Shown one piece after another: positions 12,569 to 64,000 of a DNA stretch of 64,000 nt. The notes beneath the pieces are model-generated. The model searched no databases and was not told the origin of the DNA. It saw only the letters and a list, made by a program, of their open reading frames with translations. The stretch is from a virus, in the IMG/VR virus record IMGVR_UViG_3300042374_001687, positions 64,001 through 128,000 of that record; one strand, given 5' to 3'. The position numbers and the translations under genes are program-made. Numbering within the stretch: position 1 is the stretch's first letter; each line of letters opens with the position of its first letter.

Positions 12569-12793
12569 ATGGAATTTAAAAGATGGCTGGCTGAGGTGGG
12601 TGGCTCTGGCGGAATCGGGGGAGGATTGACTCCACCCTTGGAAAAAGCCACCGGATACTCCGGGGCATTCGCCGACTATCATGGAAAGGGGGCGAGCGAT
12701 CCCAAAAATCCCAATGGCACTCTTCCGCCCGTACCTCAAAAGGTCTTCCGAAGGGATTTCAAAAAGAAAGCAAAAACCTTGAGAAAGGTCTGA
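12569..12793 (+). CDS. Small protein with capsid-targeting-like N-terminus (MEFKRWLAE) and basic C-terminus
   Basis: ATG 12569 follows TATATA. The N-terminal motif is shared with many ORFs in the window. Confidence 0.6.
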   Translation: MEFKRWLAEVGGSGGIGGGLTPPLEKATGYSGAFADYHGKGASDPKNPNGTLPPVPQKVFRRDFKKKAKTLRKV

Positions 12794-12796
12794 TAT

Positions 12797-12979
12797 GTGA
12801 ACTACCCACTCCCCTAAAGGGAGTGGGCTTCCTGCTTCAACCTCGGTTGCCCTTGATTGCTCTCAGGTCTTACACCAAGTCCACAGGCTATTCCCGTAGT
12901 TCCTGCGGTTCTTTTCGCTTCATTAACCGCCATCTATCCCAGCCCCTAAAGGGACTGGGTTTTCTGGCGGCGAGGATAT
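12797..12979 (-). mobile_element. Non-autonomous IS200/IS605-family element (left-end hairpin + TnpB omega/reRNA-like right end, no ORFs)
   Basis: On the minus strand, TTTAT precedes the left hairpin ccgccagaaaacccagtccctttaggggctgggatagatggcgg. It continues 'accgcaggaactacgggaatagcctgtggac...gaagcaggaagcccactccctttaggggagtgggtagTTCAC', the typical tnpB 3'/right-end architecture. Confidence 0.75.
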
Positions 12980-12989
12980 ATAAAGAGCC

Positions 12990-14549
12990 ATGACAAAAGA
13001 CCAAATACTAAGACAGATAGACTCCATAATAGACGGTTGGGTCAACGACACAATTTCCAGTTTGACATCCGGCAAGTCAGAGGTTCAACCAAGAGGAATA
13101 TGGGACAGGCTCAAAGGCACATTCTATAACTTAAGGTATGGAAGAAACGACAAGCAAAACAACCCATATTATTGGAAGAACAGATTTGGCGATGAATTGG
13201 GAACAAAGCAAGAGTGCCACAACCCGTCATCCCTCACGCTTTCAGAGTATTGCGTCTTGAAATCTACGGTAAATGAGGCACAGACGATAATAAATGAAGC
13301 GTTAGATCCCGAGACGGAAAAGTTACGGCTTGTTCAACTTATTAGAAAGGCGGCGGAAGACCTTAAGGGTCGACTTCGCTCTGTTCTTTCCGCTTGGGAT
13401 ATGACCCAAGCCTCTTCCGGGAGCGGTATGGAGAAGGCCACCGCGGACAGAAATGTGGGAGGCGCCTCCGCGGGAAATAAAAAAGATCCCGAACCTGTTC
13501 CTAGCAGCGATGTAGACAATTCTCATGCTGGTGAGGAAGCGAAAACAGCAGCCGTGACCGGAGGTGCAGAGACGGCGCCCGTGAGCGGCGGTGTGGAGAC
13601 GGAGCCCGTGACCGGAGGTACGGAGACGGCACAAAGCGCTGCAAAATCAAGTGGCGGAAAATTGCCGACGGTTAGTGCGGCGGATGGCGGAAATGCAGTG
13701 GGGACAAACAAAGGTAAAAAAACAGAGACAGACTTAAAAAAGAGTATTCGAGAAGCTGCAAAAACCAGAAAAGAAAGTCCTAGCAATTTAACTCCTCAAG
13801 TTTCTTGGCTTAATTCTGGGGGGAGGTTAGTCAAAGAAAAAATGCCTTGGGTAATAGCTTGGATTTCTACCATGCCTCATGCTAGCTATGACGACGAAAT
13901 CATAGAGAGGGAATTAAAAAACAAGGATCGAGTTGGAGACAAATTCGCTTCCAAATTCAAAGGTCTGGCGTGGAAAAAGGAAGGTCACAGATCTTTGATC
14001 AGAGGCCTAAGGCAACACTTGGGCTTAATTTCTGACGAGGATTTCAAGAAAATAATTCACGACTTGACAGGTGGCGATACCGTAGATGCTGAAATTTCTA
14101 GATCAAAACAAGAAGTTAAGCCCGGGGCTGAGAAAAAGACCAAACAAAAAGAGGATCCTAAACAATCTGCGGTTTCTTCTAGGGGGGGCGAAAAGGAACA
14201 AGATCAAGATTCACCTAAAAAAGACGAAGAGAAAAAGAAGGATCTCCTCAAAACACTTTATGAGGGGAAGACAACAAAGGAGATACTTGACGGCATAAAA
14301 AGCAGATTGCTTTCGCCCTCGTGGATATTTCTAGGAAAGGACGAATCAATAGGCAGAAAATTCAACACACTCATGGGCAAGCTGAGGGCTCAGTATGGGG
14401 GTGACGACGACAAAACTCCGAACGCTCAAGAAGAAAGCAAGAATGGACTTATCATCAAAATTGCAAGTGGCGATCTATTAAAGGACATCCTGCAGACTGT
14501 TGGCTCGGGAAAGCTTAAAGAATCTGATCTGATTGGATTTTTAGGCTAA
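12990..14549 (+). CDS. Hypothetical protein with low-complexity A/G/T/E linker (possible internal head protein)
   Basis: 519-aa ORF after TATATA, with 'GG.ET.PV' short repeats and possible (I/L)xE maturation sites such as IINE. Confidence 0.6.
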   Translation: MTKDQILRQIDSIIDGWVNDTISSLTSGKSEVQPRGIWDRLKGTFYNLRYGRNDKQNNPYYWKNRFGDELGTKQECHNPSSLTLSEYCVLKSTVNEAQTIINEALDPETEKLRLVQLIRKAAEDLKGRLRSVLSAWDMTQASSGSGMEKATADRNVGGASAGNKKDPEPVPSSDVDNSHAGEEAKTAAVTGGAETAPVSGGVETEPVTGGTETAQSAAKSSGGKLPTVSAADGGNAVGTNKGKKTETDLKKSIREAAKTRKESPSNLTPQVSWLNSGGRLVKEKMPWVIAWISTMPHASYDDEIIERELKNKDRVGDKFASKFKGLAWKKEGHRSLIRGLRQHLGLISDEDFKKIIHDLTGGDTVDAEISRSKQEVKPGAEKKTKQKEDPKQSAVSSRGGEKEQDQDSPKKDEEKKKDLLKTLYEGKTTKEILDGIKSRLLSPSWIFLGKDESIGRKFNTLMGKLRAQYGGDDDKTPNAQEESKNGLIIKIASGDLLKDILQTVGSGKLKESDLIGFLG

Positions 14550-14938
14550 TCATCCCAGTCATCGTCTTCATCTTCGTCGTCGTCTTCGTCGTCGTCCCAA
14601 TCATCGTCTTCATCTTCGTCGTCGTCGTCCCAATCATCGTCTTCGTCTTCATCTTCGTCGTCGTCCCAATCGCTATCCCAATCGTCGTCATCGTCTTCAT
14701 CGTCGTCATCCCAATCCTCGTCGTCTTCGTCGTCGTCGTCGTCTTCGTCTTCGGAGGCTTCTTTCCACTCCCACTCGGTTATGCCTTCACTATCGTCGTC
14801 GTCGTCATCCTCATCATCTTCTTCTTCATACTGATGATTTTCTTCGTCGTCATCAAGCCTACTGCAGGGGCTTGAGTACTCATCAAACCAGTCATTTCCG
14901 TAAATGTTTTCAACTTGACTCTCAAAATCATCACGCAT
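14546..14938 (-). CDS. Extremely acidic Asp/Glu protein with periodic Trp
   Basis: TAGGAGG RBS and TATAAT upstream. C-terminal (W-D-D-D-E-D-E-D-D-D)n repeats. Confidence 0.75.
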   Translation of the reverse strand: MRDDFESQVENIYGNDWFDEYSSPCSRLDDDEENHQYEEEDDEDDDDDDSEGITEWEWKEASEDEDDDDDEDDEDWDDDDEDDDDDWDSDWDDDEDEDEDDDWDDDDEDEDDDWDDDEDDDEDEDDDWDD

Positions 14939-15025
14939 GGTTTAAAAGCCTCCTATTAATCGCCATTTTAGATATGGAACTTATTATAGTCAACCCCAAA
15001 AAACTCTCGGCCGATATATATTCAA

Positions 15026-26963: not shown

Positions 26964-29459
26964 GTGTCGATGGCTTGGTGGGATTTTTACAAGTTGTGGA
27001 CTTATCAATTTGAGAAAGGTCCCATAGAAAGAATGGACACCGCCCAAATAACCGGGGCGGGCGTTGTGGTTCCGGACGCCATGCCGGATCTGCGGGGGGA
27101 TTCCTTTGGCCTGACTCAGTCACAGATCAGGCTGTATGACAGCAACGACTTTATAGACCTGTCTACTGTTACCAACAGGCAATCCAGGTACAAGGAATAC
27201 GAAAGGCTCAGAAGCGTGGCTGAGATGGAAATGGCCATGACCGTGATCAGCGACGAGGCTTGCGTATCCGGCGATACAAAGATAGCCACACTTTTTGACG
27301 GCCAAAAAAGTATCAAGTGGCTGACCGAGAGATGGAGGAAGGATCCTAGTCCCTTCCTTGTTTACTGTTGGGATTTTGAAAAAGAAGATTATTCCTTGGG
27401 CTGGGCGTACGATCCTAGGGTTGTAAAGACAGAAAAGACGATCAGGGTGCTTCTTGACGACGGAAGCAGTTTCGTAGTGACGCCCGACCACAGAATACTG
27501 ACGAGGGATCAGGAATGGGTTCATGCAGAAGATCTTGAGGTTGGGAGCGAACTGATGCCGTTCTACCGAATGGATCCGAACAAGAAGATAAATAGCTTCA
27601 AGTCAAGGCAATTCCCCAGAATATTCACATTTGACGGATGGAAGCACGAGCGCCAGTTCATAGACGAGTGGAGGGACGGAAAGTCAAAATACAAGAGGGT
27701 GAGCGAAGCATCCAGGCTTATAGCTGCGGGTGCCACATGTCGCTCCGTGGAAAGCATGATGAAGCACTCATGGAAGAGCATAGATTCATGGATCAGAAAA
27801 GAAGGGTTTTGCACCAAAGAACTCAAGTGGCTGGGGAAGAGGAAGGACAGGCGGAGAGTGGTCGGAATACTACCCCATAAGGAAATGGAGGTTTTTGATC
27901 TTAGCGTAAAAGACCACGAGAATTTCTGTACTGACAGCGTTGTGATGCACAACTGCCAGAAGAACGAAAAGGGAAATGTTCTGACAATAACGGTGGAGAA
28001 CGAGCAGATAAAGAAAGAACTTGAATTCTTATGCTTCAACAGGAAGATGCTCAATCTTAACCGTAAGGCTTGGCAGATGGTAAAGAAGCTCTGCATATTT
28101 GGCGACGGCTTCTATGAACTCATAACCGACCCTAAGAATCCAAAGTACGGAGTGCTCAAGATCCAAGAACTACCCCCTGACAGCATGTACAAGATAGTAA
28201 CAACTAAGGGAAGGGTGGTGGAATTCCAGCAGAGTAAAGAGGGGCCGGACTATCAAGCCCTGACACGCAGCGAAGTCTCAAAAGCAACTGACCAGGAGTT
28301 GATGCAGTCCACGGCGATCAGGTTCGCCCCCACACAAGTAATCCACATGTACCTGGGTGACGACAGAAGGACGTTTTATCCATACGGACAAAGCCTTATG
28401 GAGCCGGCCAGAGGGCCTGCCCACCAGTTGAGACTTATGGAGGACGCGATGATGGTATATCGCCTCTCCAGAGCTCCCGAGCGTAGGGTTTTCTACATAG
28501 ATGTCGGACAGTTGCCGCCATTCAAAGCCGAGGCGTTTGTGGAAAGGATGAAAGATCAATTCCGGAAAAAGAAGGTTCCGGCCGCAAGGGGAGCGGGAGC
28601 AAATGCGGTCGAGGAAAGATGGCACGCACCGGCGGCTGACGAGGACTACTGGATTCCGATCCGACCGAGTGCGAATACTAGGATAGAAACCCTCCCCGGA
28701 GCCCAGAACCTTGGCGAGATCGATGATGCCCTATATTTCAGGAACAAGCTTTTCACAGCACTCAACTTCCCAAAGAACTACCTGAGCAATGAGGATGTGG
28801 GGGCGACAAGAATAACGCTGAGCGCCCAAGACGCAAGGTTTGCAAGGATGGTAGAAAGAATACAATCAAGCATGGAGGATGCAATACTTGAAATATGTGA
28901 GCGTCACCTTGAAATGAGAGGGTTCCCATCAGAGGCCTATGAAGACCTTAAGATAGAGATGACGCCACCGAGCAGCTGGAGGGAACTGAGCGAGGCCGAG
29001 ATCATGAACAACAGGATCAACGCGGTAACGACGCTGAAGTCCTCCATGCTCATGAGCGATTTTGACTTGCTTACTAAATTCCTCAAGATCAGCGAGGAGG
29101 AGGCCGTTAGAATAATATCAAGGAACAAGATTCAGAAACTAGAAGACCTCAAGATCCAGATAATAGGACAAAACCCGCAGCTTTTGGGAGTAGGTACGCC
29201 AGGAATTCCAACCGGGGAGCCTGAAATTGGAGCCGAACGAGGCGGCCCCACGCCAAACCTAGAGGCACCCGAAGAGTCCGAAAGCGAAATAAACCAGACG
29301 GAAGAGGAAAGTCCCGAGGCGGAAACGGGAGAAGGCCAAGAAATAACGGCCGAACTCCCAGACCCCAGCGAAGAGGACATCAAAAAGTACGATTTGGGCA
29401 TAGAGAACTACAGCAAGGATATAGACAACGAGGACATAGACTGGAGCGAAGAGGGATGA
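26964..29459 (+). CDS. Portal protein (T4 gp20-like) containing an intein
   Basis: 'LRLMEDAMMVYRLSRAPERRVFYIDVGQLP..KAE', 'EDYWIP', 'IETLPGAQNLGEIDD..YFRNKLF.AL..P'. Confidence 0.95.
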   Translation: MSMAWWDFYKLWTYQFEKGPIERMDTAQITGAGVVVPDAMPDLRGDSFGLTQSQIRLYDSNDFIDLSTVTNRQSRYKEYERLRSVAEMEMAMTVISDEACVSGDTKIATLFDGQKSIKWLTERWRKDPSPFLVYCWDFEKEDYSLGWAYDPRVVKTEKTIRVLLDDGSSFVVTPDHRILTRDQEWVHAEDLEVGSELMPFYRMDPNKKINSFKSRQFPRIFTFDGWKHERQFIDEWRDGKSKYKRVSEASRLIAAGATCRSVESMMKHSWKSIDSWIRKEGFCTKELKWLGKRKDRRRVVGILPHKEMEVFDLSVKDHENFCTDSVVMHNCQKNEKGNVLTITVENEQIKKELEFLCFNRKMLNLNRKAWQMVKKLCIFGDGFYELITDPKNPKYGVLKIQELPPDSMYKIVTTKGRVVEFQQSKEGPDYQALTRSEVSKATDQELMQSTAIRFAPTQVIHMYLGDDRRTFYPYGQSLMEPARGPAHQLRLMEDAMMVYRLSRAPERRVFYIDVGQLPPFKAEAFVERMKDQFRKKKVPAARGAGANAVEERWHAPAADEDYWIPIRPSANTRIETLPGAQNLGEIDDALYFRNKLFTALNFPKNYLSNEDVGATRITLSAQDARFARMVERIQSSMEDAILEICERHLEMRGFPSEAYEDLKIEMTPPSSWRELSEAEIMNNRINAVTTLKSSMLMSDFDLLTKFLKISEEEAVRIISRNKIQKLEDLKIQIIGQNPQLLGVGTPGIPTGEPEIGAERGGPTPNLEAPEESESEINQTEEESPEAETGEGQEITAELPDPSEEDIKKYDLGIENYSKDIDNEDIDWSEEG
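27261..27953 (+). mobile_element. Intein (231 aa) in the portal protein
   Basis: Block A 'CVSGDTKI', block B 'VTPDHRIL', block F 'VFDLSV', and block G 'VMHN' followed by extein Cys. Confidence 0.9.
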
Positions 29460-29793: not shown

Positions 29794-30420
29794 ATGACCA
29801 ATTTCAAAGAATGGCTCATCTCTGAGGCCGCCATAGTGCCGGAGAAGATCCAGTATGACGAAAAAGGAAGACCCAACTTCCGCGTGTACTTCATGAATGA
29901 AGGCCAGACGATAGGGCTGGAGGTGCTGCAAGGGGGAGGATACAAATTTGCAGGCGATCTCATAAGCGATGTGTTTGGAAACACGCAAATTCTACAAGGC
30001 TACAAGTTGTTTAATTGGCACAACGATCTACCCAAGGACGGAGGCTACAGCCCGATGTTCTACGACATCGCCATGGAACTCGCGACAAAGAAGGGCGGAT
30101 ATCTGGTGTCCGCAACCTTGGTCAACAGGCTTGTCGGAGCAAAGAACGCAAAGGAAAACAAGGGCTACGCGGGAGGAGACACCAGCGATGGAGCAGAGGC
30201 CATCTACAAGTTCTACTACGAAAGAAGAGGCGATGTTGAGAAGGTGCAGCCCAATCTGATTTTGATGAACGAACCAGACCAAGCCAACAAACCATATCTG
30301 TACGAACTCTATAAGAAAAGCCCGACAGTCATACCCAAACTGATCCAGATGAATTCAAAAGGACAGCCTGTGCTAGTGTCGGGGATGGGCATACATGCGA
30401 AGCCCATCATGAGCCTTTAG
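29794..30420 (+). CDS. GNAT-like protein with capsid-targeting-like N-terminus (MTNFKEWLISE)
   Basis: TAGATA upstream. 'GGYSPMFYDIAMELA...G.LVS...S.GAEAIYKFY' resembles the GNAT motif A/B region. Confidence 0.5.
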   Translation: MTNFKEWLISEAAIVPEKIQYDEKGRPNFRVYFMNEGQTIGLEVLQGGGYKFAGDLISDVFGNTQILQGYKLFNWHNDLPKDGGYSPMFYDIAMELATKKGGYLVSATLVNRLVGAKNAKENKGYAGGDTSDGAEAIYKFYYERRGDVEKVQPNLILMNEPDQANKPYLYELYKKSPTVIPKLIQMNSKGQPVLVSGMGIHAKPIMSL

Positions 30421-31601
30421 AATCCGACCTTTCTCTTCTCTTCCTCCTCGTGGAAGTTGTCGTCGTCATTGTATATTTCGGCAAGGGTCATGGGAGAATC
30501 TGTCCTTCTCGAGGATCCCATGGACTCCAACACTCGGTTCGCATCCTCGGCGGACAAGGCTTTGAAGCAGTGCTCAAAAAGGAGCCTCCCCTTCCTAACA
30601 AGCGCCGAGTCTATGTTCTCGCGCTCTATGTTGAAGGTTGCGATGATCATGATGTTGAGGCAGTCGCCCAGTATGCCGTCGGTGATGTTTAGTATGTTGC
30701 TGACAGCACCGTTGTCTCCCGAGTCCCGGCTCCTTATTACCTTCTCGGCGTCCTCCAGCAAGAGTATGGAATTCCTGTGTCCCATCATAAAACTCAAAAA
30801 ATCGGGACTTGTGAGCTGCTCGGCGGCGGCGGAGGAAAGATATATCACCTTCCTGTTGGTCTTAGTTGTGAGATACTTTATGAATGTGCTCTTGCCAGTG
30901 CCGGGGTCTCCTGAAAAAAGAACAAGGCCGTTCTTGTTTTTGGACAGAAGATCCACGACCCTTCCGAGTTTCTCGGAATAATCGCGGCCATAGTTGAGTT
31001 CAATGTCCACGGAGGGAGGAAGCTTTATATTAAATCTCTGGAGCGATAGCATCCCGTCAGAGGCGCAAAGCAGATAAACATTACTGTGCTTCCTGGGTTC
31101 GGGTTCCAATTCAAAACAGCCCTTGACCTTTTCTAGGGTCTCGGAAGAAGCATAAAGTATGCGACCTCTGTAATTGGTGAAATCTTTGTCCTCTTCCTCC
31201 TCCTCGTCGTCGGCCTCGTCAATGTGAAAATAATTCCTTCTCAAGAGGCTTTCTTTTCTGTATATCAGGATCATGGAGTCCTCGTACTCGTAGCAAATTT
31301 CCGTGTTGTCCACGAGTTTTTTGCCGTCTATAAGCGTCTCCAGTTCGCACTGAAAAAACCTCTTGGCGCCCATCTTTTCAAGGTTTTCCAGCGTGGAAAC
31401 GCTTATGGGCGACTGGTACTCGTAGACCGATGGCTGTTTGGAGTGACGGTCCACATAGTTGTAGAAAAAATTAAGGTATGTTCCGTAGTCGCCCGAGTTA
31501 GTCTTGCGACCGTAAGGATTGGAATTTAGGTCTTTCATTCCATTATCATAATCCCGACTGTTAAAAAAATCAAGGCCTTTCAGGGATTTTTGAGTTATCA
31601 A
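30417..31601 (-). CDS. AAA+ ATPase
   Basis: Walker A 'GDPGTGKST', Walker B 'LLLEDAE', 'ILNITDG' and SRH 'DSALVRKGR'. The true start may be ~31538. Confidence 0.9.
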   Translation of the reverse strand: MITQKSLKGLDFFNSRDYDNGMKDLNSNPYGRKTNSGDYGTYLNFFYNYVDRHSKQPSVYEYQSPISVSTLENLEKMGAKRFFQCELETLIDGKKLVDNTEICYEYEDSMILIYRKESLLRRNYFHIDEADDEEEEEDKDFTNYRGRILYASSETLEKVKGCFELEPEPRKHSNVYLLCASDGMLSLQRFNIKLPPSVDIELNYGRDYSEKLGRVVDLLSKNKNGLVLFSGDPGTGKSTFIKYLTTKTNRKVIYLSSAAAEQLTSPDFLSFMMGHRNSILLLEDAEKVIRSRDSGDNGAVSNILNITDGILGDCLNIMIIATFNIERENIDSALVRKGRLLFEHCFKALSAEDANRVLESMGSSRRTDSPMTLAEIYNDDDNFHEEEEKRKVGF

Positions 31602-31720: not shown

Positions 31721-33517
31721 ATGAAAAGAAAACTCATCGAGTACGATGCATTCAACAAAATAAAGACGGAGTCGCTGTCGAACGCCCAGAAGGAATTGGA
31801 GGCGGCGTCCAACCTTCTGGCCGTGGCTCTGGAGATGGAAGGACTTTCCTTGGACTCATTCGGGCCCAATGAAGTACTGTTCGAATCGCTGGACGGTGAT
31901 TTCGTCCACGCAAACTATGAAATAAAGAATGGTTATGTGCAGTTTGACAATGTCGAGCAGCTCGTGATCAACGAGGAGAGTGAGGCTGCCAAGTCGAAGG
32001 AAGTTATATCGCGCATGATCGACTCGCTCATCGAGAGCGACGAGGCCAAGGCCAACGAGATCTTCGCGGAGTGGATGAACCTCCCAAGAACAAAGAGAAT
32101 ATTCACCGAGACCAAGAAGCTCCGCGTAGTCCCGATCCGAAAGAGGGTCGGCGGCAAAACAAAGATCGTCGGCTACAGAAAGGCGCGCTGGAGTGTCACT
32201 CCCCACTCGCACGAGAGCGGAAGCAAGACGGCCAAGAGAATGCGCATGAAGAGGGCCAGCCAGAGAAAAATGCCACTCGGCCTAAAGAAGTTCCTCGCCG
32301 CGAGGCGCGACAGGGTCAAGAAGACAATCGGCGAGTGGAATGTGATCGCCGAAAACGTGCTGAACTACCTTGATCTAACACAGAACGGCCCGGTTGTTGA
32401 CCAGTGCGGCGTCTTGAGGAAAGAGAACGAGATCGTTTCGGTCAGGGTTCCGACCATGAAACTCAGGAACGAGGCCAAACTCCTCAAGTTCAACTGGGAC
32501 ACTATGAACACCGATGTCGTTGTCAAGAGAAGCAACGCCAAGAAGATGAATGAGAACAGCGAATTCGTCAAGGAAATCGCCGAACTCAAGAGAGCCAACG
32601 CCCTCTCCGACACCAAGTCGTTTGAGGAGTCACTCGAGAGCATCTCCACAAAGTATGCCGACTGCATCTATCTGACCGAGGGAGAACTCGCCAGACAGAT
32701 AAAGCTGTGCCTAGAGTCCGCTGCGGCCAGCAACTACGACGATGAAACATGCCAGTTCCTGGCTGAGGGCATCATCAGGACGATCCACGAAAACTTCGTG
32801 GAGCGTGTCGCGAAGATCGTAAAGCTCGCCGGATCCAAGATCAACGAGGAAGCCGCCGACAAGTATGCCGAGTTCAAGGCCATCGCCGAAACCTATTTCA
32901 AGAAGTTGGACGAGTCCAGAATGCTTGAGATGCAGGCCTTCGTCGATGTGTATGAAGCCCTGAGACAAGTTCACGAACTAGCTAAGGAAGAGAACAACGA
33001 GATAGTTGCCGAGGAAGCCGCCGCTCAACTGGACAGCTTGCTGCCCATCGTGAAGGGCGAGGCTGAACTTTCGGCCGAAGTTCTCGGCGAGGCCGCCGAA
33101 CTCCTATATGACATCGTGGAAGGCACGATGCCCGAGGAGTGGAAGGTTTCGGAGCCGGTCGTCAGCGCCGAGGGCGAGCACCCCGAAGTCGCCAAGAAGG
33201 GCAAGACTAGCCAGTCGCCCGCCGAGATGCAGGGCAGAACGCCCGAAGCTCAGCACACAAGCGACGGAAAGGAATGCGACGGTGACGCGGCCCGCGAACT
33301 TGAAGGCGAGGGCTGGAGCAACCTGGGCGGCGAGGGAGTCTACCCCGAGCTTGATAACCCGTACGTACTCAAGGCCGGAGAATACAAGATTGCCAACGAG
33401 AAGGACATTGATTCCGACTCCGATCAGCTAGCGCACTGGGGAGACGCCGACACATGGCCGAACCTCCAGAATCCTTATTCCAAGGCCAGCGTCACGCCGA
33501 AGTCTGTCAAAGAGTAA
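31721..33517 (+). CDS. Large prohead core/head assembly protein
   Basis: First gene of the head operon, directly before the protease. Acidic coiled-coil with a very basic central segment (T4 gp68-like). TATATA upstream and GC-rich codons. Confidence 0.6.
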   Translation: MKRKLIEYDAFNKIKTESLSNAQKELEAASNLLAVALEMEGLSLDSFGPNEVLFESLDGDFVHANYEIKNGYVQFDNVEQLVINEESEAAKSKEVISRMIDSLIESDEAKANEIFAEWMNLPRTKRIFTETKKLRVVPIRKRVGGKTKIVGYRKARWSVTPHSHESGSKTAKRMRMKRASQRKMPLGLKKFLAARRDRVKKTIGEWNVIAENVLNYLDLTQNGPVVDQCGVLRKENEIVSVRVPTMKLRNEAKLLKFNWDTMNTDVVVKRSNAKKMNENSEFVKEIAELKRANALSDTKSFEESLESISTKYADCIYLTEGELARQIKLCLESAAASNYDDETCQFLAEGIIRTIHENFVERVAKIVKLAGSKINEEAADKYAEFKAIAETYFKKLDESRMLEMQAFVDVYEALRQVHELAKEENNEIVAEEAAAQLDSLLPIVKGEAELSAEVLGEAAELLYDIVEGTMPEEWKVSEPVVSAEGEHPEVAKKGKTSQSPAEMQGRTPEAQHTSDGKECDGDAARELEGEGWSNLGGEGVYPELDNPYVLKAGEYKIANEKDIDSDSDQLAHWGDADTWPNLQNPYSKASVTPKSVKE

Positions 33518-36669: not shown

Positions 36670-36706
36670 AAACCCTCGGCAGAAATGCTGGGGGTTTTTT
36701 GTTTTC
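36670..36706 (+). terminator. Intrinsic terminator after the MCP
   Basis: aaaccctcggca-gaaa-tgctggggttt followed by a T-run. Confidence 0.8.
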
Positions 36707-37883: not shown

Positions 37884-37920
37884 ATTGATTTCTCCGATTG
37901 ATTGACTATTATATATGTAG

Positions 37921-43982: not shown

Positions 43983-44142
43983 ATTTTTATTTTACTTTAG
44001 ATCTGGGTCATCACCAAGTCATAAAAATATTGACTCTCCCATTTGCGAAGGTGATAGTAAAAGGATTTAAATACGGCGGAAGGACGGTGAAAGCCGTGGT
44101 CAGCATAGATGCTTTTAAAAGAGATAGAGGCATAGATAAGGC

Positions 44143-44299
44143 ATGAAAACATTTAATGAATGGTTAGAATTGAGGGAGGCCGGTTTCTTCTCAAAAATTT
44201 CACGAATGGCTTGAATTGAAAGAGGCTGGGTTCTTCTCCGGTTTGTTCGGGAAGAAACCCGCTCCAGCGCCGGTCACGCAAGTCGGATCGGTGACATGA
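44143..44299 (+). pseudogene. Duplicated, out-of-frame capsid-targeting-like leader without cargo
   Basis: MKTFNEWLELREAGFFSK..* overlaps a +1-frame KFHEWLELKEAGFFSGLFGKKPAPAP...*. TAGATA upstream. Confidence 0.55.
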
Positions 44300-44375: not shown

Positions 44376-44768
44376 ATGAAACAACTACCCAGAAAGAAAC
44401 TTCCAAAAGAATTGGCTGTCATAAACGCAGATAATTGCACTGGGTGCGAGGCTTGCTTGGAGGTTTGCCCTGTTGATTGCATTATCAAGATTCAGCAACA
44501 TGACAAGTTCCATAATCTACAGAGTTGGTGCCAGATTGATTTGGACAGGTGTGTTGGCTGCGAGGTTTGTGTACATATTCCCGGAAAGAAGACCAATCCC
44601 TATGATCTGAAGGTTTGTCCTTGGGATGCGATTGAGATGGTTCCGACGGAAAAAGCAGCCGAAGTTGTTGCCCAGATTGGCGGTCCTCCCGAGTACATCG
44701 AGAAGAATTGGGATAATCTTGTAGGAATTGCGTATAATTTGGCGAAATTGAAGGCGGAGAATAAGTAG
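44376..44768 (+). CDS. 4Fe-4S dicluster ferredoxin
   Basis: 'CTGCEACLEVCP' and 'CVGCEVC...VCPWDAI'. Confidence 0.9.
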   Translation: MKQLPRKKLPKELAVINADNCTGCEACLEVCPVDCIIKIQQHDKFHNLQSWCQIDLDRCVGCEVCVHIPGKKTNPYDLKVCPWDAIEMVPTEKAAEVVAQIGGPPEYIEKNWDNLVGIAYNLAKLKAENK

Positions 44769-45615: not shown

Positions 45616-46146
45616 ATGAAGACATTTTACGAGATGTTGCAGATATTGAGCGAGGAGGAATACGATGCGGAGAAAGACGCTCGTGCCATGGGATACAGTG
45701 GTGCGGCGGACGCTGACAGGAACAATTGGGGCAGCCCTGTCCGCCGAGATCCGAATGCCAAGATGACCCAGCAGGAAAAGAGCGAAATGTATCGGGACGC
45801 TGCGGAAAATCCCAAGACGATTGAAGAATTCGTGAAGTTCGTGAATGGAATGAAGAATCCTGTAGTTCTGAAGTGGAGGAAGGACGATACTTGGATTTCC
45901 GGCAATTTCTTGAGCGATCCCAGCAACTACATTGATCTAAAAGAACTTATCAATGGAATAGAAAAATACAGAAGTTTTAAAGAGTTTTGGAGGAGTCTGG
46001 ATCTTTCTCCCAAGGATCATATGATAATTGCAAACACGATAACGGGCTTGCTGCGTCAGGGTCTTCCAATGAGCGTCAGGGACGCCTTTGCGAGCGGGGA
46101 GTTGCGTTCCGGGGCTCCTTTCAGGAGCGGTAGCGGATGGGCATGA
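45616..46146 (+). CDS. Hypothetical protein with capsid-targeting-like N-terminus (MKTFYEMLQILSEE)
   Basis: GAGG RBS and TAGATA at 45589. Confidence 0.65.
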   Translation: MKTFYEMLQILSEEEYDAEKDARAMGYSGAADADRNNWGSPVRRDPNAKMTQQEKSEMYRDAAENPKTIEEFVKFVNGMKNPVVLKWRKDDTWISGNFLSDPSNYIDLKELINGIEKYRSFKEFWRSLDLSPKDHMIIANTITGLLRQGLPMSVRDAFASGELRSGAPFRSGSGWA

Positions 46147-46451
46147 TTAATTTTTACGGGTGGCTAGAATTGGCCGAGGCTCGGGCTCCAAAAGGCAGCC
46201 CCACCAGCCTTAACATATGGGTGATGTTTGACTCTCTGGAGAAGGGTGGCGGGGTGATATCCGACCGCGTGGAACCGACCAGCTTGAGTCATCTTCGGAG
46301 GTGTTTGGAGGCGGGTCTTCTAGAGCGTGGGGCTTCGGGAGGTTTTGTACCAACCCAGAATGGTATAGAGGCGATGGAGAAGGATCTCGCCGTCAAGATG
46401 TCGCGGGATCCTAATTACAAGAGGCCTGCGTGGATGGGTCCTGGCTCTTAA
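46143..46451 (+). CDS. Small protein with capsid-targeting-like N-terminus (MINFYGWLELAE), possible winged helix
   Basis: ATGA-coupled. 'LRRCLEAGLLER....GFVPTQNG' resembles a wHTH. Confidence 0.55.
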   Translation: MINFYGWLELAEARAPKGSPTSLNIWVMFDSLEKGGGVISDRVEPTSLSHLRRCLEAGLLERGASGGFVPTQNGIEAMEKDLAVKMSRDPNYKRPAWMGPGS

Positions 46452-46462: not shown

Positions 46463-46798
46463 ATGAAAACTTTTAATGAATGGCTGGAAAAGAAGGCTGA
46501 GTCTTGGGATCCCGAGACCCAAAGGTACCTGGACTGGCGCAAGCAGTTCACTGCGAAGTTCCCGGTTGGAGAATACAACCCTAGGAACGGCATGGACAGG
46601 GACAACCTTTTCGCCGGGCGTATATCTTGGGTTCTTGACGAGTTTGGTGGCGGGGAGCATGGCAAAATATGGGATTACATCGGAGGCGTCAATCAGTCCG
46701 AAAACAACTACTACATGCTTCTGGAGAAGCTTGTGGAAAGGGAATTCCCGGAAATGCTAGTTCAGTGGAAGGAGGATGGCGGAGGACGGGACGGCTGA
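46463..46798 (+). CDS. Small protein with capsid-targeting-like N-terminus (MKTFNEWLEKKAE)
   Basis: ATG at 46463 with the shared N-terminal motif. Confidence 0.6.
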   Translation: MKTFNEWLEKKAESWDPETQRYLDWRKQFTAKFPVGEYNPRNGMDRDNLFAGRISWVLDEFGGGEHGKIWDYIGGVNQSENNYYMLLEKLVEREFPEMLVQWKEDGGGRDG

Positions 46799-50677: not shown

Positions 50678-50767
50678 GGAGGTATATATCCACAACGAAT
50701 CAAGGGAGTAAGCCGGCTGGCAATGCGAACATAAAAGATTTGAGAAGCACCATTTGGAAACATTGGA

Positions 50768-51795: not shown

Positions 51796-52170
51796 CTAGG
51801 AAACTTTTCCTTTCCATACGGCTCCGAGCGAGGACAGATCCTTGGAGTGGGCTATTGATTCAAATCCTTGCCTAGCACGGTCGAGAAGGCTCCTTGCCAA
51901 GCCCTGTTTCCTGTATTCCGGTAAAGTGTAAACATTTGCTATTTGTCCGTTGATTCCGTCCTTGGATACGATCTGGAGGGCGCTGACAGGCTTGCCGTCA
52001 ATGTAGTGGACATACCGGTACGAGCCGTGAGGCGAAAGGAACTTGACGGATCCGTCGGCCTCCCTCCCGACTTGTTTTTCTGGGCCGATCTGAGGTATGG
52101 TTCCGGCCGGGCCGAGGAGATATAACAGATCCGGCTCGCCAGATTCTGCAAGCCATATTTTAAAATTCAT
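51796..52170 (-). CDS. GNAT acetyltransferase with capsid-targeting-like N-terminus (MNFKIWLAE)
   Basis: Motif A 'IANVYTLPEYRKQGLARSL'. Confidence 0.8.
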   Translation of the reverse strand: MNFKIWLAESGEPDLLYLLGPAGTIPQIGPEKQVGREADGSVKFLSPHGSYRYVHYIDGKPVSALQIVSKDGINGQIANVYTLPEYRKQGLARSLLDRARQGFESIAHSKDLSSLGAVWKGKVS

Positions 52171-52175
52171 GAAGG

Positions 52176-52185
52176 TATCTAGATA
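52176..52185. promoter_or_regulatory. Palindromic TATCTAGATA putative bidirectional late promoter
   Basis: Lies between divergent genes 52170(-) and 52225(+). Identical to 16464-16473. Confidence 0.55.
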
Positions 52186-52224
52186 TTTGATTTTTAAAAC
52201 CTAGATATGGTCTGGAGGTTGAAT

Positions 52225-52593
52225 ATGAAGAGTTTTTACGAAATGATGAAGTTGATAGAGGAGGATCTGGGTCTGGGCGATCAGCAAGCCCCAATGGTGG
52301 CACAAGACCAGCCGGCTCCCGAGGCGGCCGGACAAGAGGGCCAAGAGACACCCGACCAAGCCGCCGCTCAACCTTCGGATCAAGAAAAGCCTAAGCACTA
52401 CATGTTCTTTTCCAACTTGAAGGTCATAAAGAACATGGCAGAAGAGATGCTTTCCATGGATCCCTCTCAAGTTGACGCCCTCCTAGACGACGGTCACGAC
52501 TGGGCTTCGGATCATGTTGCGACGAGCAAGGATGATGTGGAAGAAGTTTGCAATTGGCTCAAAAGCAACATGGAAGGCTCTAATCAAGGATGA
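52225..52593 (+). CDS. Acidic protein with capsid-targeting-like N-terminus (MKSFYEMMKLIEE)
   Basis: GGAGG RBS; C-terminal 'HDWASDHVATSKDDVEEV' helical domain. Confidence 0.65.
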   Translation: MKSFYEMMKLIEEDLGLGDQQAPMVAQDQPAPEAAGQEGQETPDQAAAQPSDQEKPKHYMFFSNLKVIKNMAEEMLSMDPSQVDALLDDGHDWASDHVATSKDDVEEVCNWLKSNMEGSNQG

Positions 52594-53291
52594 AAAGTTT
52601 CAAGAGTTGGCTGCTGGAGGTCGTGACCCAGGAAGAATTCGGCGAGGAAAACAACAGCAGCAAGAAGGAGATGGTAGTTCTAGTCGGACCGCCGGCGGTT
52701 GGGAAAAGCACATTCATCAAGAGCAAATTTCCTCCGGGAGATGTTTTCTTGGTGAGCCGCGACGACATCGTGGACGATGTCGCGGGTTCCTTGGGTATGA
52801 CCTACGATGATATGTTTGAAATGCCCCCAGAGAGCTCGGCAATTGGGTCCATGGTTCCCGGCAAGGAAAAGTTCGGAGTCGTCTTGGCCGCTCCGCAATG
52901 GATGAGGTGGACGACAAAGGTTTACTCTAAAATCCAAGAGGCAAACAATTCCATAAATGGAAGGCTGGAGGAGCGCTTCAAAAGGGCGGTAGATTCGGGA
53001 AAACATGTGGTCGTGGATATGACCAACATGACAGTCGGCGCCAGACGGGGGGCTTTGAAATATATACACGGAAAGGATTTCTTTAGGAGAGCAGTCGTCT
53101 TTACCCTCCAAGAGTCGGACATTCCCGAACTCTTGCGCAGGATGAGATCAAGAAGCGATCAGATCAAGGCTAACGGCGGATCCAAGACCATAGGCGACGA
53201 TGTAGTGGCCAGGATGATCAAGAGTTTTCAGAAAATAGGCCCCGAAGAGGGATTTGACAAGGTAGATACTTTTAATTCATTCTCGCCTTGA
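52590..53291 (+). CDS. P-loop kinase (AAA_33 / polynucleotide-kinase-like) with capsid-targeting-like N-terminus (MKSFKSWLLE)
   Basis: 'LVGPPAVGKST', 'VSRDD', 'VVVDMTNMT...RR' and lid 'LLRRM..R'. Confidence 0.8.
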   Translation: MKSFKSWLLEVVTQEEFGEENNSSKKEMVVLVGPPAVGKSTFIKSKFPPGDVFLVSRDDIVDDVAGSLGMTYDDMFEMPPESSAIGSMVPGKEKFGVVLAAPQWMRWTTKVYSKIQEANNSINGRLEERFKRAVDSGKHVVVDMTNMTVGARRGALKYIHGKDFFRRAVVFTLQESDIPELLRRMRSRSDQIKANGGSKTIGDDVVARMIKSFQKIGPEEGFDKVDTFNSFSP

Positions 53292-53325: not shown

Positions 53326-54213
53326 ATGAACACTATAAAATTAGAAAATCGGATGTTCGGCCATGTTGAATCGGCGGAAGATGTGGAAAAGGGCGCTCAC
53401 CTCAACCATTTCTTGAATGTCCGCACCACGAATGGCTTCTTGTCCGTCAAGTACTGGAACATGAAGAATCGCGATCTTTTTCCGGTCGTCGGAGATCTAG
53501 TGGAGCTCAAGATGAAGGATCTTGAGGAGGCCCAGGCTGAGCTGGACAAATGGAGGAGTTTGAGCTTGGACTCCAAGAGCGGGCGGTCTTATTTTTGCGA
53601 CATATCCATACTGAATGAGGAGGATGTTCCAGAGGATGTTAGAAAAAAGATAAAGAGGGACAGGACAAAGCAGAAAATTCGGGCGTTGGAGATCATCAAG
53701 GACGATTCTTATTGGAAGGACAAGAACCTCCATAGTTTCTTGATGAACTTCTTCAAGAAAGAGATGGAGAGGTTCGCGAGCGTCCCTGCGGCGATCAAGA
53801 ATCATCACGCGTACAAAAGCGGTCTTTTTATACATACTGCTCATGTGTTTAGTTTGTGCCAAGGTGTAGTGAACAATCCCATGAAGGAATTTGACGAGGT
53901 GGATTCGGATGTTCTTTACATGGCAGCTTGGTTCCACGACATGGGAAAGATGGATGTTTATTCCATGGATGGAGAGGCTCCCAAGATGAATTTTGACAAG
54001 GAGAACATGTTCGGCCACATCGTGTTGTCCGACCGCATTTTCAGGAAGGCGGCCGAGGAAGCCGGTTTGGATTCAAAGTTTATCGATGCCGTTAGCCACT
54101 GCATTCTTTCACACCACCAGATGAGGGAGTGGAATGCGGTCGTCGAGCCGGTTACGAACGAGGCGCACATTCTCTGCAGGGCTGATGGAATTAGTTCAAG
54201 AATATCGGAATAG
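53326..54213 (+). CDS. HD-domain 3'-5' exonuclease, YhaM/Cbf1-like
   Basis: 'PAA..NHHAYKSGL..HT', 'FHDMGK', 'GHI', 'ILSHH' and 'ADGISS', with an OB-like N-terminus. Sigma70-like TTGATT-TATATT upstream. Confidence 0.85.
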   Translation: MNTIKLENRMFGHVESAEDVEKGAHLNHFLNVRTTNGFLSVKYWNMKNRDLFPVVGDLVELKMKDLEEAQAELDKWRSLSLDSKSGRSYFCDISILNEEDVPEDVRKKIKRDRTKQKIRALEIIKDDSYWKDKNLHSFLMNFFKKEMERFASVPAAIKNHHAYKSGLFIHTAHVFSLCQGVVNNPMKEFDEVDSDVLYMAAWFHDMGKMDVYSMDGEAPKMNFDKENMFGHIVLSDRIFRKAAEEAGLDSKFIDAVSHCILSHHQMREWNAVVEPVTNEAHILCRADGISSRISE

Positions 54214-54754: not shown

Positions 54755-54900
54755 ATATCCTCCTGTTACAACTTTTAAAGTTTAACAACTATCAACATTT
54801 GGCCCGCCAACGAGGCGGCGTCAAATTGGCCTTCCGTGAGTGGACTGGCCGAAAATATTATAGTAAAATCAAAGCCGCATTTTATGGCATAAATATTCGG

Positions 54901-56314: not shown

Positions 56315-57052
56315 ATGGAATTTAGGGAGTTTCTTGAAGAACAAGAGTTCAAGGCATTTGACGAGCAGATGGCTCTTGAAGTCAATCTGTTGACCGTGCC
56401 GAAATTTGTGGCCGGGGCGGCTGCAAATGCTGTGACGCAAGCTGGCAGAGGGGTCGGCAACATCGTCGGCGGGGCGGCAAAGAGTGCCCTTGGTGCAGCC
56501 CGCATGGGTCTTGGCGGCCTCCAGATGATTGGAGGCGGTGTAGAGCCGGGCTGGGATAATGTTAAGGCGGGATGGGGTGCTGCTCAGGATGCTGGCCTCC
56601 AAATTGGAAAAGGCGTCCTTCAAGGGGCCGGCGTCGTTACCGGGGCCACCCCGCTTCTAAGAGGGGCTCAGGCTGCGAGCGAAAAGATAACCGATATAAG
56701 CGGGATTTATTCGCCCAAAGGAAAGAATTCTTGGCAAGACATCTTCGGAATGAATTCTTGGAAAAAAGATTCAAGTGAGTCTGGGGTCAAGAATTTAGAG
56801 CGTGCCAAAGCTGCCGGAAAGGCTGTTCCCTCTGAGAGGAGGAGTGGAGTAAGCTCAAAAGTTTCAGCCGAGGCAAGAGAGAAGGCTCTTGAAAGACAGC
56901 AGCTCTGGCTGCATTTGGTCGCCGCCTATAAGTCTTCTAGAAGTTTGGCCGAGAAGAAGAAACTCCAAGACACGATAAGAAAGGTGTTTCCGGAAAAGTA
57001 CGCAGAGATAATGGCGCGGCAAGAAACCAAGAAGATAATGGACAAAAAATGA
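56315..57052 (+). CDS. Gly/Ala-rich protein with capsid-targeting-like N-terminus (MEFREFLEE)
   Basis: TAGATA at 56305. Glycine-zipper-like helices and a basic C-terminus. Confidence 0.65.
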   Translation: MEFREFLEEQEFKAFDEQMALEVNLLTVPKFVAGAAANAVTQAGRGVGNIVGGAAKSALGAARMGLGGLQMIGGGVEPGWDNVKAGWGAAQDAGLQIGKGVLQGAGVVTGATPLLRGAQAASEKITDISGIYSPKGKNSWQDIFGMNSWKKDSSESGVKNLERAKAAGKAVPSERRSGVSSKVSAEAREKALERQQLWLHLVAAYKSSRSLAEKKKLQDTIRKVFPEKYAEIMARQETKKIMDKK

Positions 57053-57186
57053 AAAAGAAGAAGAAAAAGAGCAAAAGTGGCGGACTGAAGATGGTGCTGA
57101 ACTCCAGCGGACAGCCGGTGTTTATCGGTTTCAAGGACTGGCTGGTCGCTCGGGGCAAGCTTGTTGAAGGCCAAGTCCAGACTTAA
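57049..57186 (+). CDS. Small basic protein (45 aa, not in ORF track)
   Basis: MKKKKKKSKSGGLKMVLNSSGQPVFIGFKDWLVARGKLVE...; ATGA-coupled, with an internal FKDWL motif. Confidence 0.4.
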   Translation: MKKKKKKSKSGGLKMVLNSSGQPVFIGFKDWLVARGKLVEGQVQT

Positions 57187-57985
57187 TTTTTGCTGCCGTG
57201 CTTTCGTTTTCAAAAAGAAGGGCGTCTTCGGACTCTACCTCGCTCCTCCAGTTTTCGTTCATTTCTTTGTACTTCTCGGAAAGTTCCTCTGGGGCCGGCA
57301 TCTTTAGTCCGGATATCTCGACAAGCAAAGACCCCAATTCCCCGTGACCCTTGATTTCGTAAATATCGCCCACGCTTGTTCCGGGCTTTATGTGAAGTTT
57401 CCTAGGGCCGTAGAGTGTTTCCACCTCTATTATGCCGCCTTGAAGAGCTACAATTACCGGTATGGCTTCGTTGACAAGAAGCAGTCCGGCATCCTTGTTG
57501 GGCGAAGGCTTGTAACGCTCATGTTCCTTTATGGAATAGTGAACCTTTATGTCCTTTATGGATCCGCCTATCCTCTGTGCTTTGTGCAACTTAGAAACTG
57601 GTGACGCTTTTAAAAGCAACATTGGGGGTATCTTCTCCACCACCGTCAGGACATGAATGTTTGCCTTGGATGAAATATTCCTTTTGTCTGATATCATGGG
57701 AACGCTGGATATAACCTCTTGCCTCAGGTGTGTCTCCAAGGTCGTTCCGAATATTGCCTCCTCAAGAGATACTTGAACATGAAACTCAATCTTGTCTTCT
57801 TTTGGGGTTTCGTCTTCTTGCAAGGATGTAAGAAGTTTGTATGCCTCGTGTATCTTCAAGAATTTCTCAGGATCGCCGCCCTTGTCGGGGTGGTTCTCCT
57901 TGCTCATCTTCAGATATGCCTTTTTTATAGTCTCCTTGGGGTCGGAACTTATTCCTAGGATTTCATACGCTTCTTCAATAGTCAT
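57131..57985 (-). CDS. DnaJ-like (class II/CbpA-type) co-chaperone
   Basis: J-domain 'YEILG...IKKAY......HPDKGGD..KF..I.EAY..L' and a C-terminal DnaJ_C-like domain; no Zn finger. Confidence 0.85.
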   Translation of the reverse strand: MTIEEAYEILGISSDPKETIKKAYLKMSKENHPDKGGDPEKFLKIHEAYKLLTSLQEDETPKEDKIEFHVQVSLEEAIFGTTLETHLRQEVISSVPMISDKRNISSKANIHVLTVVEKIPPMLLLKASPVSKLHKAQRIGGSIKDIKVHYSIKEHERYKPSPNKDAGLLLVNEAIPVIVALQGGIIEVETLYGPRKLHIKPGTSVGDIYEIKGHGELGSLLVEISGLKMPAPEELSEKYKEMNENWRSEVESEDALLFENESTAAKIKSGLGLQQACPERPASP

Positions 57986-58004
57986 ATCTTATATATGATT
58001 GCAT

Positions 58005-61946: not shown

Positions 61947-62001
61947 GAACTTATATAGTCTTTCTGGGCTAGTTTGACCCGATGGTTACTATCTTATCTT
62001 A

Positions 62002-62908: not shown

Positions 62909-62930
62909 CGCGTGGCCGCTAAATATATCC

Positions 62931-63212
62931 ATGACCATCACCTTCAAGGAATTTGCAGATAGCAACGACGAGTCCAAGGACGAACAGAAGGCCCTCGAGG
63001 TCGTCAGGAAGGGAATGAACATGCAGAGGGGCTCGGACTTCTGGGACGACTTAATAAGCCTTTGCGGGAATGCCGAAGGCATGTCCAAGCTTCTAGGGGT
63101 TCCGAGGGAAAAGATCACCGGGCTGGCCGGCAGGATCGGCAAATTGAAGGATAAGGCAATAGATACGGACGAAACTAGTTCCAAAGACCGACTTATCAAA
63201 ACGGGGAAATAA
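62931..63212 (+). CDS. Small protein with capsid-targeting-like N-terminus (MTITFKEFAD)
   Basis: TAAATA at 62921. Confidence 0.6.
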   Translation: MTITFKEFADSNDESKDEQKALEVVRKGMNMQRGSDFWDDLISLCGNAEGMSKLLGVPREKITGLAGRIGKLKDKAIDTDETSSKDRLIKTGK

Positions 63213-63214
63213 AA

Positions 63215-63853
63215 ATGAAGAGCATAAGAGAGTGGAGAGCGGACAGAGAAGGAAGAATTGGCAAAAATCTTATGGAGTTGAACCTCGCGACATCTCTAAG
63301 GAATTTTGTGGGCGGCGCCAACATAAAACAAGACCCCAGGATAAAGGCGGGGCTAAGGTCCAAGATACTTGGTCTTTGGAAGGACGCTCAAGGGTCGGGA
63401 ATGAGCGCCCTTGACTTTGTCAGGCAAGTTTGGGCGATAGCCGGATCTTTGGCCACCGGCAAATCGGGAACAAACCTCAGCGTCGGGACGGCGGCAAAGG
63501 GGCTGAACGCAGTTGACGATCACCATCAAGAGTGGGCGGAACTGAGCGAGTTGGTTCTGAAGGAGATGGTCGGAGATGCCGATATAGACAAGAGCCAGTT
63601 TGCAAAATTCGCGGGAAGCACAACCCTTGATGTAGACTCAAAATTGAAGCAGGAACTAAGGTCTAAGATAAACCACATAGGAGAGATGAAGGAGTTCTCT
63701 GGTCTGACTAAGGCCGAGTTGTTCAAGAAAATAGTTGCTGCCGTCGCCGCGTTAGAGGCCGATGTCAGCGGAAGCACCATATCCATCGCATCCGTTGCTG
63801 GCAAGATGAATAGTGCGGACGACGACAAGGACATAGCCCAAGAGGTAAGATGA
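63215..63853 (+). CDS. Protein with capsid-targeting-like N-terminus (MKSIREWR) and an internal domain duplication
   Basis: Two ~90-aa copies of 'F.G.....D...K..LRSKI...A.L....SG...S....A..N..DD'. Confidence 0.6.
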   Translation: MKSIREWRADREGRIGKNLMELNLATSLRNFVGGANIKQDPRIKAGLRSKILGLWKDAQGSGMSALDFVRQVWAIAGSLATGKSGTNLSVGTAAKGLNAVDDHHQEWAELSELVLKEMVGDADIDKSQFAKFAGSTTLDVDSKLKQELRSKINHIGEMKEFSGLTKAELFKKIVAAVAALEADVSGSTISIASVAGKMNSADDDKDIAQEVR

Positions 63854-64000
63854 TTCCTTTCTCTAAGTGGATGGAGGGATTGTCCGAGCCCCAAGACAAA
63901 GTCGGCGAGAAAAATGCGGACCTGGAGAAGGTCGTTGAGAAACGGCTGATGCAGATGATCATGTCGCTGGAGATGGATGGCAGGGGAGCCAGGAAGGACA
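63850..64000 (+). CDS. Partial ORF with capsid-targeting-like N-terminus (MIPFSKWME), runs off window
   Basis: ATGA-coupled with a GAGG RBS; open to the window end. Confidence 0.55.
   Translation, partial: MIPFSKWMEGLSEPQDKVGEKNADLEKVVEKRLMQMIMSLEMDGRGARKD

Follow-up and report, generated by a model that had tools for sequence, protein, structure and literature searches.

A T4-like N-terminal leader shared by unrelated proteins of a freshwater huge phage: a candidate capsid targeting sequence

The internal proteins of phage T4 carry a short capsid targeting sequence at their N-termini, which is removed from IPI, IPII and IPIII by the gp21 protease (Mullaney & Black 1996, as cited in the relevant passages of PMC9026906 and PMC3012670). 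The part of PMC9026906 that deals with IPIII describes its first ten residues as sufficient for packaging, with residues 4 and 7 serving mainly in targeting and residues 8 and 10 in processing. The idea that such a sequence lets T4-like phages package diverse proteins is already established, as excerpts of PMC3012670 and PMC9026906 make clear. In the T4 record (NC_000866), IPII and IPIII start with MKTYQEFIAE and IPI starts with MKTFKEFTST. Here we describe a similar N-terminal sequence, referred to below as the tag, which precedes many unrelated proteins in a 64,000-nucleotide stretch of viral DNA (the window; bases 64001-128000 of the 143,618-bp IMG/VR virus record IMGVR_UViG_3300042374_001687, with a CheckV completeness of 28%). 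We count approximately 12 tagged proteins in the window, and 25-30 in the 143-kb fragment.

Other phages are known to load proteins into their heads. SPN3US and phiKZ have a giant capsid with about 50 or more proteins, many of which are ejected with the DNA; the ejection and inner-body proteins are processed by a prohead protease, and their N-terminal propeptides are thought to target proteins to the prohead (PMC5694885, PMC7411985). The Dar anti-restriction proteins of phage P1 are packaged in the head and delivered with the DNA, according to the sections of PMC9024508 and PMC12810830 that treat them. At the level of gene order, T4-type mobile promoter cassettes mediate modular shuffling, as set out in part of Arbiol et al. 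2010 (PMC2839356). A literature search that combined the capsid targeting sequence with huge, jumbo or metagenomic phages found no description of a system such as the one considered here.

Our preferred reading, to which we assign a probability of about two in three, is that the shared N-terminus is a T4-type capsid targeting sequence, which would load a large, rapidly changing set of unrelated proteins that are injected with the DNA. This reading is based on the match between the conserved F, W, L and E and the residues mapped in T4 IPIII, on the presence of protease, scaffold-like and capsid genes in the window, and on the retention of the tag across the clade. From these features we infer core binding, cleavage, packaging and ejection, as follows. 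The tag, predicted to be a two-turn amphipathic helix with F4, W7 and L8 on one face, would attach a freshly synthesized protein to the scaffold core while the prohead assembles; the gp21-type protease would then cut after the following Glu, typically in the context (L/I/V)-x-E; and the mature protein would stay in the DNA-filled head and enter the next host cell with the DNA.

We take the record to be part of the genome of a huge phage that is common in fresh water and has a T4-type head, given its lake sources, the identities of its capsid protein and the number of its relatives. The sequencing runs found to contain the stretch are DNA runs from lake water, with no RNA run among them. The closest complete relative is LR756511.1, the 595-kb genome of an uncultured phage, whose capsid protein has 77.6% identity to that of the window; against the capsid proteins of cultured T4-like phages, the identity is only roughly 30-40%. 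A total of 402 IMG/VR stretches encode a relative of the window's capsid protein; for the best 80 of these 402 the identity is 82-100%, and some are on contigs of up to 533 kb. When 12 kb of the window were compared by megablast with 50,697 phage records, nothing matched.

The tag motif and its conservation

The tag was defined by the strict motif M-x(1-3)-F-x-x-[WFM]-[LMIF]. This motif is found at the start of 19 of the 188 called genes in the record, whereas only four of the 758 ATG codons inside these coding frames have it (Fisher p = 9e-11), so that the N-terminal enrichment anticipated in the preliminary description of this DNA holds across the record. When the whole record is scanned in six frames, the strict motif falls overwhelmingly at the beginning of long open frames. 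A weight matrix trained solely on the tags of other phages (scores in bits) gives a bimodal distribution in the record, with 16 start-proximal ATGs at 10 bits or more and the next class at 3 bits or less; the single “internal” ATG that reaches 10 bits is itself a true start.

Different tags use different synonymous codons for Phe, Leu, Glu and Lys (all six Leu codons are used), and AAA is frequent as the second codon of tagged genes. An all-versus-all BLASTP comparison of the tagged proteins minus their first 15 residues gives no match at E<1e-3, in agreement with the earlier statement that the downstream domains are unrelated. The synonymous codon variation and the unrelated bodies together point to selection on a short peptide that is placed ahead of unrelated proteins.

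Across 156 tags from the clade, the Phe anchor (present by construction) is followed at +3 by Trp, Phe or Met (W in 67%) and then by Leu, Met, Val or Ile, with Glu enriched 2-5 residues further on. For the tags of the record, 22 of 31 have [LIVMFA]-x-E 2-7 residues past the second aromatic residue. A DNA pattern for M..F..WL is in clear excess in the record and in LR756511.1 and in slight excess in LR756508.1; T4, Flavobacterium phage immuto, XacN1 and Mel-JY01 have no excess of it. We conclude that the Trp form of the tag is clade-specific. A 50-kb stretch of Atu_ph07, a distant relative with 131 virion proteins identified by mass spectrometry, is without a shared leader, which we do not take as evidence either way. 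With their K, E, W, L and E residues, the tags have a charged and amphipathic character; they are not followed by a hydrophobic stretch and have no Sec or Tat signature. Chance or composition was considered as the origin of the motif, and is ruled out by the placement at starts, the comparison with internal ATGs, the matrix built from outside phages and the excess of the DNA pattern.

The conservation of individual positions is most easily seen in the 208-aa protein encoded right after the portal gene (29794-30420, +; 17.2 bits), which starts with MTNFKEWLISE followed by AA and has TAGATA 4 nt before its ATG. This protein has 54 homologues, 52 of which carry the tag at their start. In an alignment of 44 homologues, the most divergent at 36% identity, all have F4 and E11; A12 and A13 are kept in at least 40 of the 44, W7 in 39 and L8 in 37, and positions 2, 3 and 10 are free to vary. 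A face for docking and, after it, a site for cleavage, (I/V/L)-x-E plus Ala-Ala, would be expected to leave such a pattern. In the predicted structure of this protein, the tag forms a short helix from residue 4 to residue 11 that precedes the fold, and this would place F4, W7 and L8 on one face. For the fold itself, Foldseek gives no significant match, and the weak resemblance to GNAT folds (VIA-align Z 5-6.4) is below the trustworthy level.

A second family, that of a 233-aa P-loop kinase (52590-53291, +; 14.5 bits; MKSFKSWLLE followed by V), indicates that the tag can be present on or absent from the same domain. The kinase has 434 homologues, and among the best 120 of these, 48 have this tag; the rest have other leaders that end in aromatic or aliphatic residues plus Glu, or start directly at the P-loop strand. 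The kinase has an invariant P-loop. In the AlphaFold2 model the tag lies outside the fold (pLDDT of 47 for residues 1-10, and above 90 for the remainder), and the fold is nearest to those of polynucleotide 5'-kinases (Foldseek E ~2e-7, TM ~0.5). Stereotyped other leaders are seen on kinase homologues P0048-P0120 in metagenomic phages (for example MYNKNNPNYKLYLAGIISENQYYEMLE, MKTISLLQRLIREFIEE and MSFYRNQKPISERSWMES), which could be a capsid-loading leader in dialects that differ by clade.

Head machinery and competing explanations

Head genes of the T4 type lie in the window. The portal protein (26964-29459, +) is T4 gp20-like (phrog_213, E 3e-77), with TAGATA 17 nt upstream of its start. The prohead protease (33536-34255, +) is of the T4 gp21 type (PF03420, 94.6 bits, E 4e-28), as the preliminary description had claimed, and its alignment to the T4 gp21 structure (PDB 5JBL, E 1.6e-15) has His, Ser and Asp at the catalytic positions. 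Next to it are an acidic, Glu-rich 304-aa protein that is scaffold-like (34255-35169, +) and the gp23-type major capsid protein (35206-36633, +), which has several (L/I)-x-E sites in residues 1-48. Two further genes lie within this module. A very acidic 598-aa protein with no family match is encoded between the portal and protease genes (31721-33517, +), and may be a core or scaffold component; an AAA+ ATPase is encoded beside the tagged 208-aa gene on the opposite strand (30417-31601, -).

If tagged proteins share the prohead with a gp21-type protease, cleavable motifs should be purged from their bodies. We therefore counted the T4-style motif [LIV]-x-E-[AGS], with the expectation taken from shuffles. 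In the record, there are 0.13 such motifs per 100 residues of tagged bodies versus 0.40 in other proteins (observed/expected ratios of 0.46 and 1.36, respectively), and in LR756511.1 there are 0.10 versus 0.29 (0.45 and 1.18). With both genomes pooled, the tagged bodies contain 13 sites versus 28.8 by shuffles (Poisson p = 8e-4). The depletion is suggestive, as an indirect sign, of exposure to the protease. The tagged bodies have a median isoelectric point of 8.5 versus 6.6, a difference that is not significant (p = 0.08).

The tagged repertoire turns over very fast. Only six of 32 tagged proteins have homologues in the 595-kb genome of LR756511.1; five of these have a diverged tag and the sixth is a primase. 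LR756511.1 has about 45 tagged open reading frames (ORFs) of its own, and the 0.93 Mb surrounding the capsid gene in 80 relatives contain 95 unique tagged ORFs, often in tandem arrays. Even in a phage with an identical capsid protein, only one intact gene among six tagged is in common with the record. The large and modular repertoire proposed earlier thus stands as far as the tag on unrelated bodies and the kinase with or without a tag are concerned, while the packaging and delivery of effectors are what we infer from it.

The tagged proteins include a number of enzymes. In addition to the kinase and a GNAT acetyltransferase in the window, the tagged proteins elsewhere in the record comprise an ArdC-N-domain protein, a CCA-adding/poly(A)-polymerase-family enzyme, a GP88-family protein and a LuxR-type helix-turn-helix protein. 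Pfam gives no family for most tagged proteins, and PHROGs gives nothing for nine of them nor for the 598-aa protein of the head module. A tRNA-repair kit brought in at entry is one role in which the kinase and the CCA-adding enzyme would make sense together.

The tagged proteins might instead enter the prohead as core, scaffold or filler parts, and be degraded or remain inert rather than reach the host as effectors. The genes of the T4 core proteins gp67 and gp68 are between the portal and protease genes (PMC5694885), like the tagged 208-aa gene here, and many tagged proteins are small Gly/Ala-rich orphans. However, several cargoes are enzymes with intact motifs (the kinase with its invariant P-loop, the CCA-adding enzyme and the GNAT protein), the depletion of cleavage-type motifs suggests that the tagged bodies survive the protease, and the rapid gene turnover is unusual for structural parts. 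A pure core role fits the small orphans better than it does the enzymes and the turnover, which suit it poorly, and we consider it unlikely.

It is also improbable, in our judgment, that the leader is a handle for some other process, such as recognition by an enzyme that modifies many substrates, chaperoning or degradation that times protein levels, or sorting to another structure built by the phage. In favour of such a role, the phage has genes for an actin-like protein and a DnaJ protein, an AAA+ ATPase gene adjoins a tagged one, and a ferredoxin-like gene is found inside one tag cluster. But the leader matches the T4 capsid targeting sequence exactly at the functionally mapped positions, it ends in Glu followed by small residues, as protease sites do, and the depletion of protease motifs is not predicted by a role of this kind. 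One specific version, a leader for a radical-SAM maturase, is ruled out because the radical-SAM domain PF04055 is absent from both the record and the complete 595-kb relative; the same search found PF04055 in 14 of 14 control genomes.

A hexamer is associated with the tagged genes. The sequence TA[GAT]ATA (TA-N-ATA) is six-fold enriched between genes. Of 30 tagged genes, 11 have it 4-5 nt ahead of their start codon, compared with three of 178 other genes (p = 2e-8). The same spacing is found in 65 of 133 tagged ORFs of relatives, often as ggcCTAGATAgggcATG, and the hexamer also precedes the portal and baseplate-wedge genes at the normal leader distance. Its sequence is similar to the final six bases of TATAAATA, the T4 late promoter. 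With the hexamer only 4-5 nt from the ATG, a ribosome-binding site would not fit, and the tagged genes with an abutting hexamer are probably transcribed as leaderless late mRNAs together with the head genes. The earlier proposal that a late promoter accompanies the tag is therefore supported as regards the association of the hexamer, with its lateness suggested by the resemblance to T4. Roughly a dozen untagged genes likewise have the hexamer 3-8 nt ahead of their ATG (12984-12989, 37910-37915, 50683-50688 (-), 54890-54895, 57990-57995 (-), 61952-61957 (-) and others), among them a 519-aa ORF at 12990, an HNH endonuclease gene at 37922 and the DnaJ gene at 57985 (-); genes with leaderless-type starts may form a general class in this phage.

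That the conserved start reflects only a translation-initiation constraint of leaderless or poorly led mRNAs, with no role for the peptide, would suit the lack of room for a Shine-Dalgarno site in about half of the tagged genes and the common AAA second codon, but it is very improbable, since conservation peaks at codons 4, 7, 8 and ~10-11 despite synonymous codon variation, tagged genes with good Shine-Dalgarno sites retain the motif, and the hexamer-ATG arrangement is also present on untagged genes.

Several points weigh against the capsid-targeting interpretation. Some of these concern the tag itself. The preliminary description had listed 14 N-termini (the one at 60545 as a weaker match), every one of which is an ATG that gives the reported peptide at the reported position; 12 of them score 7.9-28.4 bits, but those at 63215 (-1.1 bits) and 60545 (-15.8 bits, a DUF5856 protein) fail, and one of the 12 is a relic. 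For approximately one quarter of the tags, the seven residues that follow the second aromatic one include no clear (L/I/V)-x-E. In addition, a DnaG-type primase (8668-9723, -) has an ambiguous tag-like start (MSIDFDRFLSWAE, 7.3 bits; conserved in the relative as MVDFDSFVDWCE), which may simply be part of the primase, and a primase suits packaging less naturally. Other points concern the head machinery. The gp22-type assignment of the 304-aa protein rests on its position and composition, with no PHROG match. For the capsid protein, the “LINE” site noted earlier is present as RLINE at residues 44-48, but four or five (L/I)-x-E candidates, this one included, fall within the first 48 residues; alignment to mature T4 gp23 does not single it out, and puts the T4 cut near residue 33, where there is no Glu. 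The remaining candidates for the maturation site are LLE25, LLE41 and INE48. The motif used to measure depletion was borrowed from T4, and the secondary structure of small orphan proteins could partly explain the result. No gp55-like late sigma factor was found by tblastn with T4 gp55 in the record and LR756511.1, and the “late promoter” is thus unproven. Finally, ten of the window's cargo proteins have no family match, which makes their effector roles guesses, and the term “anti-defence” rests on a few domain matches.

If the tag works as in T4, then N-termini alone would list the proteins that are delivered in the first seconds of infection. Since most of the listed proteins are without a known family, such a list would be a place to seek counter-defence or take-over functions, and the tag, being short and portable, provides a concrete handle that can be tested. 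A mechanism known from three T4 proteins would be extended to dozens of cargoes. The hexamer-ATG arrangement would add a class of leaderless late genes in phages. More tentatively, and with somewhat less than even confidence, we suggest that a widespread freshwater huge-phage clade with genomes of up to ~600 kb loads about one tenth of its proteome in this way, including an RNA-repair set (the polynucleotide-kinase-like and CCA-adding enzymes), an ArdC-like protein and acetyltransferases, and that its promoter-plus-tag cassettes both give rise to leaderless late mRNAs and serve as recombination handles; a newly captured gene could then become injected cargo in one step.

Tagged genes and neighbouring loci

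At the left of the window is the gene of a 74-aa Gly-rich protein (12569-12793, +; MEFKRWLAE, 7.9 bits), with TATATA 5 nt before the ATG. The 208-aa and kinase genes are described above. Between 43979 and 44330 (+), comparison with relatives reveals relics of tagged genes. Here, 43979-44128 is the 3' fragment of a tagged gene that relatives keep intact, 44143-44214 is a 23-codon ORF with an intact tag (28.4 bits), and a second copy of the tag, out of frame and with no start codon, begins at 44198. The N-terminus at 44143 had been counted as that of a tagged protein; its tag is perfect, but it belongs to no intact gene. The two out-of-frame tag copies of this relic, taken with the stereotyped ggcCTAGATAgggcATGAAAAC starts in relatives, suggest gene swapping at tags.

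Three tagged genes follow on the same strand, and encode a 176-aa protein of no known family (45616-46146, +; MKTFYEMLQILSE, 16.4 bits), a 102-aa protein whose family is tagged in relatives too (46143-46451, +; MINFYGWLELAE followed by ARAPKG, 18.8 bits) and a 111-aa protein (46463-46798, +; MKTFNEWLEKKAE, 24.2 bits). Within the tagged-gene array there is also an untagged 130-aa 4Fe-4S ferredoxin-like protein (44376-44768, +).

Near 52 kb, two tagged genes diverge. One encodes the 124-aa GNAT acetyltransferase (51796-52170, -; MNFKIWLAE, 10.4 bits), with TAGATA 5 nt before the ATG, and the other a 122-aa acidic protein (52225-52593, +; MKSFYEMMKLIEE, 17.8 bits), with a Shine-Dalgarno site and TAGATA farther upstream. 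They have in common a 54-bp spacer with two CTAGATA motifs, one facing each gene (52160-52230). The kinase gene follows, and then a 245-aa Gly/Ala-rich protein (56315-57052, +; MEFREFLEE, 17.2 bits) with TAGATA 4 nt before the ATG. An HD-domain protein (53326-54213, +) and the DnaJ-type chaperone (57131-57985, -) are located among these tagged genes.

At the right end of the window, a 93-aa protein (62931-63212, +; MTITFKEF) is a moderate match at 9.1 bits, and its orthologue in the 595-kb relative begins with MTFLEAWE. The adjoining gene that starts with MKSIREW (63215-63853, +) is the claimed member whose tag is unsupported at -1.1 bits. The last tagged gene encodes an 85-aa protein (63850-64000, +; MIPFSKWMEGLSE, 11.4 bits) and extends beyond the window to 64107.

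Directly after the capsid gene are a DUF7487 plus TnsA-like nuclease gene (36705-37883, -) and an HNH/endonuclease VII-like gene (37922-39466, +). Close relatives are without most of the stretch 36705-39466, and the two endonuclease-type genes are probably homing elements. Next is a low-GC island (39728-43982, -; GC 0.28 versus ~0.47 around it), which looks like an acquired glycan-modification cassette. The products of its three genes are a 748-aa protein resembling glycosyltransferase family 9, a 234-aa sulfotransferase-like protein and a 435-aa protein with RgpF rhamnan-synthesis and DUF6165 domains, and its right edge adjoins what is left of a truncated tagged gene.

Comparison with known systems

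The closest likeness is to the T4 internal proteins. In both cases there is a leader of about ten residues at the extreme N-terminus, in which positions 4 and 7 are aromatic, position 8 is aliphatic and a Glu stands at or close to position 10; the mature proteins are unrelated, the genome has a gp21-type protease and a gp23-type capsid protein, and the genes are at variable loci with rapid gene replacement. The very fast turnover seen here is as at the T-even internal-protein loci (PMC3012670, PMC4437046). The start of T4 IPI, MKTFKEF, nearly equals MKSFKEF and MTITFKEF of this phage, and scores 9.7 bits on the clade matrix. There are also clear differences. T4 has three such proteins, whereas there are dozens of tagged genes per genome here; Trp is preferred at position 7, the spacing of the Glu is variable, and sizeable enzymes are among the cargoes. 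Furthermore, unlike in T4, the hexamer abuts the ATG in about half of the tagged genes, and the host genome of the system is that of a freshwater huge phage.

The remaining systems are less similar. The propeptides of SPN3US and phiKZ are mostly longer than 100 residues and have no common short motif, and their protease and capsid lineage is unlike the T4-type set found here. The P1 Dar system is alike in that an ArdC-N-domain protein is tagged in this record, but Dar loading, in the portions of the sources cited above, is an ordered protein-protein pathway rather than one that uses a short, shared and cleavable leader. As with the cassettes of Arbiol et al., at least as far as the cited part of that paper describes them, short conserved sequences at gene starts could be recombination handles for gene swapping; in contrast to those cassettes, the repeated unit here would be a promoter-like hexamer plus tag codons, and recombination is suggested by one relic and by turnover. 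We rate what is new here as a T4 mechanism that would be greatly expanded, in a huge-phage clade and with a distinctive arrangement of promoter and tag.

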